Positions 23,571-26,507 of a DNA stretch of 32,000 nucleotides are shown here, piece by piece. The stretch's first letter is position 1, and every line of letters starts with the position of its first letter. The notes beneath the pieces are model-generated. The model saw nothing but the letters and a program-made list of their open reading frames with translations, had not been told where the DNA came from and did not search any database. This stretch comes from Promethearchaeum syntrophicum. GTDB taxonomy: Archaea; Asgardarchaeota; Lokiarchaeia; Sigyniarchaeales; Promethearchaeaceae. Position numbers and translations under genes: made by a program. The stretch covers positions 2,550,001 through 2,582,000 of the forward strand of contig NZ_CP042905.2 in assembly GCF_008000775.2 (NCBI RefSeq), read 5' to 3'.

Positions 23571-24974
23571 GTGGCACAAGCGAAAACAACTCCTAAAAAC
23601 TCACAACTGACTGCAAAGAGTTCAATGAAGCCAACGGATACTTTTCCTGAATTTAATTTCGTTTTCAGTTTTTCTCATTTTATCCAAAAATATAAAATCA
23701 ACCGATACTTCAAATATGTTCCCTTTCGAATTTTCCGAGCATTATCAGCAATCATTGGTTTCCAACAAGCGGAGAAAGGACACAGCACTGTATTAAAAAC
23801 TTGGAAATTTTTATTTCCAAAAAAAATCTTAGATAAAGTAAATTTAAAGCGCTGGACAAATTCCTACATCCAGTACAACATTGAACTTTGGTTTGATACT
23901 ACATTCTACCTTACTTGTCGAAATAGAGAAAATGCTGATTTTTTTAATCCAATTGAGGGTTTTAATCACCTCGAAAAAGCTTTACGACAAAAAAAGGGAG
24001 TTTTAGTTCCCACCATCCATTTCGGCGAATTTTTACACACTTTGTATTCATTATTTCACAGAAGAATTATTATCGATGAGGAACCTCAAAAAATCTTAGT
24101 TATCGGATTAGCATCGAAGGAAAATGAATATCTACTCAGAGAATCGTATAAAAGTCTTGATAATTTTGAAGTTCTCATTACAAATGAAATTGGCAAATTA
24201 AAAGAAACTTTGAAAGAATATCTAAGAAAAAATTACGTAGTATTTTTACTCCATGATTATTTTTCCAAAACTCAATTACGCACACCGTTCATTTATAATT
24301 CTCATAATTATAACTTTTCAATTCCAACCCCTCAGATGATATCGCATTTACATCTAAATACCGGTGCGCCTATAGTTCCTGTTGTGGCTCTACCAAGGCA
24401 TAACTTGAAACATTCGTTAGTAAAATTTCTACCTGAAGTTAACCCAATGACTATGAAAATCGCTTCAGAATCAAACACACTACAAAAAGAAATTCTCAAT
24501 TTTCGACGAGGAAATTTAACTAAGAAACAAAAATATGGCCTGATTTCCCTTTTAATCAATCGAGAACTTTACCCGAATTTATTAGAATATCCATTTCTAT
24601 GGCAAGGCGCTTTCTTATTTTTTGAAAGAACTCAATTTAAAATTCATTTGAATGATATTCAGTCTTACAGCCAATTATTAAAAGAAATTTTATCAAAATT
24701 GGATCTTTTGATTCGGGCAACTTATGAGCCAGGACGGGATGATGACAAGATCTTGAAGTTGATTGAAGAGATTGGTTCTGATTTGGAAAGCATTAGACAA
24801 GATTCAGATGATGAGTTACAAATTAATCATAAGTATATAGAATTAGGGCGTTTAAGTGGAAAAAAAGCAATTTTTAAAATAATTTCAATATTAGAACCTT
24901 TTCAAAATTCATTAATCAAGATTAAATACAAGGTAATTAACGAAAAACTTGAATTACTGAAATGTTTTTTTTAA
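23571..24974 (+). CDS. LpxL/HtrB-like (lipid A biosynthesis acyltransferase family, LPLAT superfamily) protein with ~115-aa C-terminal helical extension, paralog A
   Basis: By eye it aligns with E. coli LpxL blocks. [13 protein letters not shown] matches [34 protein letters not shown] matches [47 protein letters not shown] matches [42 protein letters not shown] matches PEQYMWLHRRFK. The start is GTG 23571, with an alternative ATG at MKPTDTF. Confidence 0.5.
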   Translation: [467 protein letters not shown]

Positions 24975-25130
24975 GTTAGTAGATCTTGATTAAGTATATT
25001 CTCATTTCTACATTTTTTATAATTGTAAAAACCTTTTTATTCAACAAAATTTTTCTTGATCATAGAAGAATTCTAGTTTTCTTTCCACTCATAAAAATAT
25101 AGTAATTCTAATATCACGGTCGTTTTTGGA

Positions 25131-26507
25131 ATGCCAGCCACAGAAAGTTTATCAAAAGATAGTTCTATGAGACCTACGCAGACCTTTCCTGAATATAATT
25201 TAATCTTCCGTCTATCACATTTTATTCAGAAGTACAAGATTAACAGATTTTTTGAAAAAGTTCCATTTTTAGGGTTTAAAATGATATCGATTGTGGTCGG
25301 GATTGAACATTCAATCAACGGACATAAACAACTCTCCAAAACCTGGAATTTTTTCTACCCAAAAAGACGGGATTTATATAAACATTGGACAAATTTATTC
25401 ATCCGGTTAAATATTGAACTATGGCTTGATTCTACGTTCTATTTACCTCTTAGAAATCCAACAAATACGGAGTTCTTCAATCCAATAGAAGGATTTTCCC
25501 ATTTGGAAAAAGCAATTAAGAAAAAAAAGGGAGTATTAGTACCCACAATACATCTTGGAGAGTTCTATCATACACTGTTTTCTCTGTTTTATAAAAAAAT
25601 TGAAATTGATGGAAAGAAGCAGAAAATATTACTTGCAATTCTTTCGAGTAAAGAAAATGATTTTCTTTTCAGGGAACAGCTTAAACCAATTAAAAATCTG
25701 GATGTAATACTCACCGATGATTTCACAAGACTAAAAAATACTATTGAAATTCATTTGAAAAGAAACTATACTGTTTTTCTACTTTACGATTATTATTCAG
25801 ACAATCAATTAAGAGTGCCTTTTATTTACAATTCAAATTCATCTGATTTTTTAATTCCTTGCCCTCAAATGATCAATCATTTTCATACAAAATTAGGTAC
25901 TCCTATTGTCCCCGTAATTGCTATTCCTACCAATGAATTAAAACATTCCATTGTCAGATTTCTACCAGAAATTTCAATAGAAAATATGAACCTATCCAAT
26001 GAAACTCAAGTTCTTAAGGAAGATATCATCAATTTTCAAAATGGGTCACTGAATAAGAAACAACAATATGGTTTGCTTTCATTATTATTAAATCGCCAAT
26101 TGTATCCATATGTTTTGAAATACCCTTTTTTATGGCAAAGTTCTTTTTTATTTTTTAAGAGGACTCAATTCCGAATCCAATTAAAAAATATATTTTCATA
26201 TAGAGAATTACTCCAAGTAGTATTAACCAAATTAGAACTTTTCATAAATAAAACATATGAACCTGGGAGGAAAGATGAATTAATTCTTTTAGAACTTCAA
26301 AAAATTTCCAATGATTTGGAAAAGAGGAAGAATGATTCTAAAGATAAACTGCAAATTACTAATAAATATATTGAATTAGGTAGATTAAATGGAAAAGCGA
26401 CCTTCACGAAGGTTATTTCTATTCTAAAAAATTTACAACCAGTAAATACCAATCAAGATTATGATCAAATCTTAGAAAAACTCAATTTGATTTTAAATCA
26501 TTTTTAA
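25131..26507 (+). CDS. LpxL/HtrB-like acyltransferase-family protein, paralog B (tandem duplicate of 23571..24974)
   Basis: Collinear with paralog A over its full length, with roughly half of the residues identical by eye. Shared blocks include TFPE(F/Y)N, [19 protein letters not shown](N/S)HLEKA, [10 protein letters not shown](F/L)GEF, PFIYNS, PIVPV, KH S(L/I)V(K/R)FLPE, YPFLWQ, TYEPGR and NKYIELGRL. Confidence 0.5.
   Translation: [458 protein letters not shown]

Follow-up and report, generated by a model that had tools for sequence, protein, structure and literature searches.

The window (the whole stretch of DNA that was analysed, 32 kb in length) carries two neighbouring genes whose products had been predicted to resemble the late lipid A acyltransferases of bacteria, and the locus raises the question of whether such proteins could act as acyltransferases in an archaeon and, if so, through which residues and on what kind of acceptor. 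The host is an Asgard archaeon (Lokiarchaeia), in keeping with the archaeal origin proposed from the sequence, as genes for an actin (E = 5e-83) and for a Ras-family GTPase lie in the window and the close homologs of the pair derive from Promethearchaeota/Promethearchaeum MAGs. Both ORFs, and all of the sequence blocks quoted in the original prediction, were found where they had been placed:

23571..24974, + strand: paralog 1, 467 aa, GTG start; clade A of a Lokiarchaeal LpxL/PatA-like acyltransferase family
25131..26507, + strand: paralog 2, 458 aa, ATG start; clade B of the same Lokiarchaeal LpxL/PatA-like family

An alignment of the two neighbouring proteins spans 456 aa at 54% identity (E = 4e-180), which bears out their proposed origin by duplication. 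They have in common the core blocks (paralog 1/paralog 2) IHFGEF/IHLGEF, FLLHDY/FLLYDY...PF, GAPIVPV/GTPIVPV, and YPFLWQ...F(E/K)R, along with the C-terminal blocks TYEPGR and (H/N)KYIELGRL. Rfam and tRNA scans of the 32-kb window returned no match. Overall, the reading that we consider rather probable is that these are old tandem paralogs of a Lokiarchaeia-specific LpxL/LpxM/PatA subfamily that would use His150 and Asp229 for acyl transfer to a membrane-associated acceptor.

Both proteins share the LpxL/LpxM/PatA acyltransferase fold (PF03279), as had been predicted, based on the structural matches of the paralog 1 model, the match of the family profile to LpxM, and the matches of close members to PF03279. 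The Pfam search that had been proposed gave a borderline result for paralog 1 (E = 9.2e-5, 22.2 bits, 0.1 bit short of the gathering cut-off of 22.3) and no Pfam match for paralog 2 on its own, while 13 of 30 close members matched PF03279 at E < 0.01 (best, 3.7e-6) and precomputed PF03279 matches occur on several homologs, distant members included. An NCBIfam scan of both proteins produced nothing meaningful and no equivalog match. Against PDB sequences, a profile of the broader family matched LpxM across the N-terminal helices and the His motif (E = 4.3e-9) and PatA weakly (E = 0.07), and the close-family profile gave a marginal match to LpxM (E = 0.09). An exhaustive profile search reached canonical bacterial LPLATs of ~300 aa bearing HxGNWE (library-wide E of 1e-5 to 1e-3).

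The structural comparison was positive. In the AF2 model of paralog 1 (pLDDT 80.6, pTM 0.82), residues 1-28 are predicted to be disordered, and a Foldseek search of the model against the PDB placed PatA on top (E = 1.4e-7, TMt 0.69-0.70), with LpxM at E = 1e-6 (TMt 0.57). The best 14 PDB matches were all PatA or LpxM (E of 1e-7 to 1e-5, TMt 0.57-0.70), followed by plastid GPAT as the next, distant match (2e-3). Matches of the full model to Csm6 were set aside as noise (E ~1e-2, TM 0.2).

The best structural match, PatA (the phosphatidylinositol-mannoside acyltransferase of Mycobacterium; PF03279; PDB 5F2Z, 5F34, 5OCE, 7OJT), resembles the Lokiarchaeal proteins in its aligned catalytic His, in the aligned acid of the next strand, and in the lack of an N-terminal transmembrane (TM) helix. 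It differs from them in that identity to the Lokiarchaeal family is only ~16%, in retaining a D at the +5 position from the His (HSGNWD) where the Lokiarchaeal family is hydrophobic, and in its length of 304 aa without a C-terminal domain; we know of no PIM substrates in archaea. The late lipid A acyltransferases LpxM, LpxL, and LpxP (PF03279; PDB 5KN7, 5KNK) share both the fold and the multi-paralog habit. LpxL and LpxM, however, possess an N-terminal TM or membrane-association helix and the HX4E acid, use an acyl-ACP donor with Kdo2-lipid IVA or lipid A as acceptors, and lack the C-terminal domain; to our knowledge, archaea have no lipid A. The PlsC/AGPAT-type LPLATs (PF01553) are part of the wider acyltransferase superfamily but fall into another Pfam family, and in their HX4D motif the Asp is paired with the His.

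The residues on which a catalytic role would depend are located as follows:

24018..24020, + strand: codon of His150 of paralog 1, the predicted catalytic general base (kept in 52/52 diverse members)
24255..24257, + strand: codon of Asp229 of paralog 1, the predicted charge-relay partner of His150 (kept in 52/52 diverse members)
25551-25553, + strand: His141 of paralog 2, the equivalent of H150
25788-25790, + strand: Asp220 of paralog 2, the equivalent of D229

In an alignment of 52 full-length members (20-80% identical), the sole invariant columns were G143, H150, and D229, so that the His, whose loss in most homologs had been raised as a possible outcome, is present throughout. H150 aligns with H126 of PatA and with H122 of LpxM (VPHFGTW), and D229, the D of the canonical ‘DQ’ block, aligns with E200 of PatA and, by way of a canonical bacterial LPLAT intermediate (P0143), with D192 of LpxM. 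His-acid pairs have been described for both enzymes, H126/E200 in PatA (PMC8519569) and H122/D192 in LpxM (PMC6286764), the latter corresponding to H150-D229. Because H150 and D229 match these pairs, a catalytic role for the two residues is more likely than a non-catalytic one, and a contact between H150 and D229 is predicted from the alignment.

The altered dyad that had been proposed, with the acid at +3 from the His, is present in both copies and in the close family, where E153 is at least 90% conserved and the +5 position is L, Y, or F and never an acid, but it does not extend to the family at large. Position 153 is not conserved across the 52 members (Q19/E12/N8/M5), with the acid limited to a Promethearchaeum-level clade and replaced elsewhere by Q, N, or M; against 52/52 for H150 and D229, the +3 acid fails as a sign of a modified dyad or of a non-catalytic role. 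At the +5 position (155), 34 of the 52 members have F and the others L, T, I, or Y. In LpxM, the +5 acid (E127) lies 7.6 A away from the His (PMC8519569, PMC6286764) and forms a second dyad together with R159. Throughout the Lokiarchaeal subfamily the +5 acid of the HX4D/E motif has been lost, and it is probably dispensable.

The family comprises ~110 clusters at 50% identity, and all of its organism-named members are assigned to Promethearchaeota, Lokiarchaeia, or Lokiarchaeota. Up to six paralogs occur per genome (six in MAG CSMAG_2396), and members diverge to 20-25% identity inside the Lokiarchaeia, with six paralog clades within one genus. A search for loci with the close-family profile recovered the genus Promethearchaeum, one further archaeon, and two weak bacterial matches, and a rerun of the homolog search with the broader profile returned essentially the same close set. 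Horizontal transfer from bacteria and an Asgard-wide family had been posed as the alternatives for the origin of the genes; the distribution resolves towards an old, multi-paralog family that is specific to the Lokiarchaeia and very distant from its bacterial relatives. Both genes are under strong purifying selection (dN/dS against the orthologs of another species, L002: paralog 1, 0.095; paralog 2, 0.124), and the two paralogs have reached saturation at synonymous sites (pS 0.76).

The age of the pair bears on the sequences that the two genes share upstream:

23420..23448, + strand: elements upstream of paralog 1 (TTTCTACATTTT at 23420-23431 and ATTTTTCTTGCTC at 23436-23448)
23522-23527 and 23541-23546, + strand: two further copies of CTACAT before paralog 1 (-49 and -30 of the start)
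25005..25061, + strand: elements upstream of paralog 2 (TTTCTACATTTT at 25005-25016 and ATTTTTCTTGATC at 25049-25061)

The 12-mer TTTCTACATTTT and the motif ATTTTTCTTG(C/A)TC were both found ahead of the two genes as predicted, the latter at 23436 and 25049. The 12-mer occurs exactly twice in the 32 kb (at 23420 and 25005; 0.08 copies expected), and two copies were seen in 0 of 100 shuffles. The shared upstream element contains CTACAT, which is conserved ahead of both L002 orthologs; before the ortholog of paralog 1 its copies keep their positions (-50 and -28), as do the GTG start and an upstream AAGGT/GAGGT element, and both of the paralog 2 upstream elements are recognisable before the ortholog of paralog 2. 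The proposal that upstream DNA was carried along in the duplication is unlikely to hold in the sense of a neutral relic, since synonymous sites are saturated. That a second species has kept CTACAT ahead of both orthologs points instead to a selected cis element.

Beyond the PF03279-like core, both proteins continue into an extension:

24630..24971, + strand: C-terminal extension of paralog 1 (residues 354-467; four long helices and a small beta hairpin)
about 26163-26504, + strand: C-terminal domain of paralog 2 (KTYEPGRKD kept)

This extension of ~115 aa is common to ~50 full-length representatives of the family; it is missing from LpxL, as originally predicted, and also from PatA. Modelled alone, that of paralog 1 reaches a pLDDT of 93 (pTM 0.85), and it is, as modelled, a structurally confident domain without known relative: the searches returned no Pfam match, no PDB sequence match, and no fold match in the PDB by Foldseek (best E of 0.25, TM 0.4). 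Its family motif is [S/T][Y/F/W]EPxRxD (T384-Y-E-P-G-R-x-D391 in paralog 1), in which R389 is kept by 49 of the 52 members and D391 by at least 90%. An ACP-like four-helix bundle was considered and rejected, with no ACP among the Foldseek matches and the conserved S/T in a different context. Short matches that resembled stand-alone C-terminal-domain proteins begin within the acyltransferase core (query positions ~313-327) and are therefore likely gene fragments, and a homolog search with the C-terminal alignment gave one match and did not widen the picture.

The neighbourhood was surveyed by all-against-all clustering of ORFs across 18 loci, with Pfam searches on recurring neighbours. The conserved neighbourhood that had been looked to for a functional partner did not materialise, as no such gene was kept across the 18 loci, and the conservation seen was genus-level synteny only (gyrase, a 439-aa protein of uncharacterised function, RFC, a D-glutamate cyclase-like protein, pseudouridine synthase, ABC transporters, and a bPH-HTH protein). 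The 439-aa neighbour was rejected as a divergent paralog (hhalign probability of 0.4%). The downstream membrane protein (238 aa) had been called DUF998-like and has no match to DUF998 even at E ≤ 10; it gives a weak match to Frag1/DRAM/Sfk1 (E = 0.006). A pyruvoyl arginine decarboxylase (PvlArgDC) is encoded directly downstream of a family gene in two distant lineages, one of which also has a downstream deoxyhypusine synthase.

That the proteins have become non-catalytic descendants (pseudoenzymes, or structural or regulatory proteins), with the loss of the HX4D/E acid marking a loss of activity, seems quite improbable. The acid at +5 is indeed missing in the whole subfamily, where position 155 is mostly F or L, there is no TM anchor, and the Pfam scores are weak. 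Pseudoenzymes usually lose the catalytic His, which counts against this reading, as H150 and D229 are invariant in 52 members down to 20-25% identity; in addition, dN/dS is ~0.1 and the two residues correspond to the working His-acid pair of PatA and LpxM (PMC8519569, PMC6286764). The proteins are probably active as enzymes. Hardly any weight can be given to a recent horizontal transfer of bacterial lpxL/htrB genes with lipid-A-type specificity kept, even though the automatic names given by NCBI and IMG (‘LpxL/LpxP family acyltransferase’, ‘KDO2-lipid IV(A) lauroyltransferase’) imply an LpxL-type function. It takes a profile to reach the nearest bacterial proteins, and then only at E of ~1e-5 to 1e-3, and these lack the C-terminal domain; the family has diversified deeply within the Lokiarchaeia, there is no NCBIfam equivalog match, and the G+C content of the paralog genes equals that of the surrounding DNA. 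Further, none of the genes in the 32-kb window belongs to the Raetz pathway, and it is established knowledge that archaea lack lipid A.

Active acyltransferases of the PF03279 fold might also act on an acceptor other than a membrane lipid (a soluble metabolite, a polyamine derivative, a glycan, or a protein), with the C-terminal domain serving to bring in this acceptor or a partner, a reading that we regard as unlikely. Compatible with it are a C-terminal domain without precedent, the absence of lipid or glycan genes from ~10 neighbourhoods, the adjacency of PvlArgDC in two distant lineages with deoxyhypusine synthase in one, and the absence of a TM helix, as no segment reaches TM level (highest 19-residue Kyte-Doolittle mean, 1.24). 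The PvlArgDC adjacency, however, is confined to one sub-clade and may be plain synteny, and LpxM and PatA, the two members of the fold for which solved structures were found, are acyltransferases of membrane glycolipids. PatA, too, is devoid of a TM helix, yet is membrane-bound through amphipathic N-terminal helices and uses acyl-CoA (PMC8519569), and the N-terminal region of the Lokiarchaeal proteins, which is helical and rich in aromatic and basic residues, would be compatible with interfacial binding.

With acyl transfer to a membrane-associated acceptor as the preferred reading, each protein would consist of three parts, an N-terminal helical region, the PF03279 alpha/beta core, and the ~115-aa C-terminal domain. 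The general base would be His150, with Asp229 of the adjacent strand polarising it as in the relays of PatA and LpxM, and, by analogy, a fatty acyl chain would pass from a thioester donor to a hydroxyl of the acceptor. Archaea generally lack ACP-based fatty acid synthesis, so acyl-CoA, as in PatA, would be the most plausible donor, and a glycolipid or a polar-lipid head group, not lipid A, the most plausible acceptor. The C-terminal domain may serve in the recognition of substrate or partner, and the paralogs of one genome are probably distinguished by the acyl chain that they transfer or the acceptor position that they modify, as are LpxL, LpxM, and LpxP. Homology, fold, the conserved His/Asp pair, purifying selection, restriction to the Lokiarchaeia, and the lack of relatives of the C-terminal domain are direct results of the analysis, whereas activity as a catalyst, the choice of donor and acceptor, binding to membranes, and any function of the C-terminal domain are inferred. 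More specifically, though doubtfully, the family may esterify acyl-CoA chains onto ether-linked isoprenoid lipids, at their sugar or inositol heads, or onto some other glycoconjugate of the envelope, in which case the [S/T][Y/F/W]EPxRxD domain would supply specificity for acceptor or partner.

Relative to known PF03279 proteins, the fold and the type of His-acid pair are familiar, whereas the C-terminal domain has no precedent; the loss of the +5 acid suggests that the acid of HX4D/E is probably dispensable in nature within this fold. The database names LpxL/LpxP and KDO2-lipid IV(A) lauroyltransferase are functionally misleading for these archaeal proteins. The “lipid divide”, in which a shift from isoprenoid ether to fatty-acyl ester lipids in the archaeal ancestor of eukaryotes is debated, has so far centred on scattered PlsY/PlsC homologs in Lokiarchaeota, which bear on the question of whether Asgard archaea have ester-linked acyl lipids (PMC6737245, PMC12993045). 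In the Asgard literature, as far as it is searchable, PlsC and PlsY are discussed and the PF03279-like family is not, and a literature search for LpxL-like proteins in Asgard archaea or Lokiarchaeota gave nothing relevant. The genes described here represent a second acyltransferase family in the Lokiarchaeal lineage, widespread in the Lokiarchaeia and with its catalytic residues kept, and the paralogs provide clonable candidates for asking whether fatty acyl esters are placed on components of the membrane or envelope in Lokiarchaeia. If the esterification of ether lipids proposed above is real, the archaeal lineage closest to eukaryotes would make hybrid ether/ester lipids by a PatA-like acylation, and Asgard membranes would gain their ester-bound acyl groups by a route separate from the PlsY/PlsC homologs.

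The predicted acyltransferase pair occupies two tandem ORFs whose coordinates are exactly those of the original prediction, and all of the sequence blocks quoted there were found. G+C is ~30% along the whole AT-rich window, which carries the following features:

6073–7212, reverse strand: lokiactin-type actin homolog (Pfam Actin, E = 5e-83)
7279–7863, reverse strand: Ras/Roc-family small GTPase, directly adjoining the actin gene
20053–21819, forward strand: 588-aa ORF with a weak MULE/Mutator transposase-domain match (E = 1.6e-4)
21892–22839, reverse strand: thioredoxin-reductase-like flavoprotein (Pyr_redox_2, E = 2e-47)
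22891–23277, reverse strand: small protein with only a faint thioredoxin match (E = 0.036)
23420–23546: CTACAT-motif region of gene 1
23571–24974, forward strand: paralog 1, 467 aa, GTG start
25005–25061: CTACAT-motif region of gene 2
25131–26507, forward strand: paralog 2, 458 aa, ATG start
26666–27382, forward strand: 238-aa multi-pass membrane protein, directly after the pair
27471–28361, forward strand: membrane protein, bacterial-PH domain (bPH_2) fused to a C-terminal HTH_3
28452–28646, forward strand: stand-alone HTH protein, 64 aa
28821–30977, forward strand: beta-lactamase-family protein, 718 aa, with a C-terminal multi-TM region

Actin and Ras-family GTPases are eukaryotic signature proteins typical of the Asgard archaea, and close homologs of both acyltransferase-like proteins derive from MAGs labelled Promethearchaeota or Promethearchaeum, together identifying the host as an Asgard archaeon of the Lokiarchaeia. 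The 588-aa ORF lies immediately upstream of the thioredoxin reductase gene and is a possible mobile element; its G+C (0.36–0.38) is slightly above that of its surroundings. Transcription of the flavoprotein and small-protein genes diverges from that of the acyltransferase pair.

Evidence from single sequences for membership in the lipid A acyltransferase family (PF03279) is weak, while evidence at the level of the family is solid. With 22.2 bits, paralog 1 fell just short of the gathering score (22.3); paralog 2 had no match in Pfam, and an NCBIfam scan of both proteins returned no meaningful match. PF03279 was matched by 13 of 30 close homologs (best E = 3.7e-6). An exhaustive HMM search with a close-family profile against 1.84 billion cluster representatives recovered 111 representatives at E < 1e-3 (87 at E < 1e-10), of which ~50 were full-length (420–490 aa) including the C-terminal region; the low end of the list consisted of ~300-aa bacterial proteins with canonical HxGNWE and DQ motifs, among them a Lentisphaeraceae “lysophospholipid acyltransferase family protein”. 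A profile built from 52 diverse members matched Acinetobacter baumannii LpxM (E = 4.3e-9) and aligned with canonical bacterial LPLATs along the entire core (58–107 bits). An AlphaFold2 model of paralog 1 (pLDDT 80.6, pTM 0.82) found its 14 best PDB matches exclusively among PatA and LpxM chains (E 1e-7 to 1e-5; target-normalised TM 0.69–0.70 for PatA, 0.57 for LpxM), followed by plastid GPAT. With LPLAT matches, a related fold and a retained histidine, the LpxL/HtrB-like assignment holds.

LpxL and LpxM proper possess an acid five residues after the catalytic His (+5) and a transmembrane anchor, whereas the window proteins have neither; a 19-residue hydropathy scan detected no transmembrane helix (maximum, 1.24). 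In the paralog 1 model, the first 28 residues are predicted to be disordered and the next ~90 form helices rich in aromatic and basic residues, an arrangement that is compatible with, and no proof of, PatA-like interfacial membrane binding.

The active site had been described as an altered HX4D/E dyad with the acid at +3, conserved in both copies and hinting at a modified catalytic arrangement or a non-catalytic role. The missing +5 acid and the Glu at +3 (E153, paralog 1 numbering) were confirmed, but position 153 itself varies across a 52-sequence alignment (Q19/E12/N8/M5), in which position 155 is hydrophobic and only the columns of G143, H150 and D229 never vary. The family profile places H150 on PatA H126 and D229 on PatA E200 (counted on the 304-residue 5OCE chain), and also places D229 on the DQ-block Asp of a canonical bacterial LPLAT (P0143), which aligns with both PatA E200 and LpxM D192 (chain index 198, tag offset 6). 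PatA employs H126 as general base with help from E200, a relay resembling that of serine proteases (PMC8519569). In LpxM, H122 and D192 share a 2.6 Å hydrogen bond, while the HX4E glutamate, E127, lies 7.6 Å from H122 and pairs with R159 (PMC6286764, reviewing Dovala et al. 2016). Taken together, the alignments and this literature indicate that the Lokiarchaeal family keeps the structurally important pair and that the residue it has lost is not one bonded to the His. The invariance of H150 and D229, and their match to the PatA pair, speak against a modified dyad or a pseudoenzyme; from these sequence comparisons we infer an H150–D229 contact and read the family as a probably competent enzyme, working like PatA or LpxM within the PF03279 fold family. 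Lipid A is implausible as a substrate in an archaeon. The +5 acid has also been lost outside the long-form archaeal clade, as shown by two short-form relatives without the C-terminal domain: P0144 (298 aa; HMGDF, sharing the +3 acid of the window proteins) and P0132 (303 aa; HMGNF, no +5 acid).

The PF03279-like core extends to approximately residue 353, with W344 and R353 corresponding to the canonical “QW...RW(K/R)” end. The predicted ~115-aa extension (residues 354–467) proved to be a separate unit that was modelled alone with high confidence (pLDDT 93, pTM 0.85, with 31 diverse sequences) as a short beta hairpin, two long helices, a second short hairpin, and three more helices. It carries a conserved [S/T][Y/F/W]EPxRxD motif, in which R389 is kept by 49 of 52 members and D391 by at least 90%. 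The region had no match in Pfam, none in the PDB by sequence, and none in the PDB by fold (best E 0.25, TM 0.4), nor was it found alone or in other architectures among the profile-search matches. Short database matches, considered as stand-alone versions of the domain, start inside the core and look like gene fragments. We infer a role in acceptor or partner recognition.

The two paralogs share 54% identity across 456 residues; saturation of their synonymous sites (pS 0.76) marks the duplication as old. Both are under strong purifying selection (dN/dS against the orthologous pair at L002, a locus in another species, 0.095 for paralog 1 and 0.124 for paralog 2). The gene 1 GTG start and a GGT-containing element 8–9 nt upstream are kept in the ortholog of another species. 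At least six paralog clades occur within the genus (A–C, ~54% mutual identity; D–F, 57–73%; A–C against D–F, 35–42%), and one MAG, CSMAG_2396, has six copies at four loci, including two tandem pairs. The window pair has the order clade A then clade B, as does L002. All members bearing an organism name belong to the Promethearchaeota, Lokiarchaeia or Lokiarchaeota; close relatives in GTDB species representatives were limited to three Promethearchaeum MAGs and one other archaeon, and contigs of distant members carry archaeal/Asgard genes (Arf/Ras GTPases, Mpt_N, pyruvoyl arginine decarboxylase, deoxyhypusine synthase). Recent horizontal transfer of a bacterial lpxL was rejected, as the nearest bacterial proteins are reached by profile only and are without the extension. 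Of the two origins initially posed, transfer or an Asgard family, the comparisons favour an old, lineage-specific and expanded family.

The 12-mer TTTCTACATTTT was confirmed before both genes, with exactly two copies in the window (151 nt before the gene 1 start codon and 126 nt before that of gene 2), each followed at differing spacing by ATTTTTCTTG(C/A)TC. Its proposed origin, upstream DNA carried along in the duplication, is unlikely as a neutral relic given the saturated synonymous sites. Gene 1 is preceded by three CTACAT copies (−148, −49, −30) and gene 2 by a single one (−123); in L002, two copies lie at −50 and −28 of the gene 1 ortholog, the same positions as in the window, and one at −68 of the gene 2 ortholog. 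None of the 14 other family genes examined has the hexamer upstream. Against a background of 0.048 per 250 nt, the clade A and B upstream regions of the two species hold 7 copies in ~950 nt (0.2 expected), a post hoc count that is suggestive only. A CTACAT-containing cis-regulatory or promoter element, selected and common to the pair, is suggested as a better reading than a neutral relic.

No conserved, functionally suggestive partner gene was found across the family loci compared. The downstream membrane protein (238 aa), called DUF998-like, had no DUF998 match and matched Frag1/DRAM/Sfk1 (PGAP2-like) weakly (E = 0.006; 16.6 bits against a 30.3 cut-off); its gene is absent at the orthologous loci L002, L006 and L007. 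In eukaryotes, Frag1/PGAP2 proteins take part in the remodelling of GPI lipids, which makes the position of this gene beside an acyltransferase intriguing. In other species, clades A and B have ABC transporter genes and a bPH-HTH protein downstream, and other Promethearchaeum loci retain the bPH_2-HTH_3 membrane protein downstream of the pair. Clades D and E neighbour RFC, a D-glutamate cyclase-like protein and a pseudouridine synthase. Clade C has gyrase on one side and an unrelated 439-aa protein on the other; this conserved ~440-aa protein always follows the clade C paralog (L001 9542–10861, L003 1684–3015, L004 6350–7681, L005 7521–8861), has no Pfam match, and was rejected as an acyltransferase-family relative (hhalign probability 0.4%). 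At the loci of two distant members (~36% identity to each other), a pyruvoyl-dependent arginine decarboxylase immediately follows the acyltransferase gene (L018 8001–11178; L019/L020 8001–10190), with deoxyhypusine synthase also following in L018; the adjacency could be polyamine-linked or plain synteny.

Public pipelines already name relatives “LpxL/LpxP family acyltransferase” (NCBI) and “lauroyl/myristoyl acyltransferase” or “KDO2-lipid IV(A) lauroyltransferase” (IMG), so the family resemblance is not new. No paper on an LpxL/PatA-like family in Asgard archaea was found, and the lipid-divide papers searched speak of PlsY and PlsC homologs alone. What the analysis adds is the definition of a long-form subfamily specific to the Lokiarchaeia that keeps an invariant His-Asp pair, has lost the +5 acid, carries an unprecedented C-terminal domain and has expanded into several paralogs. 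The interesting question about this long-form subfamily is its acceptor.
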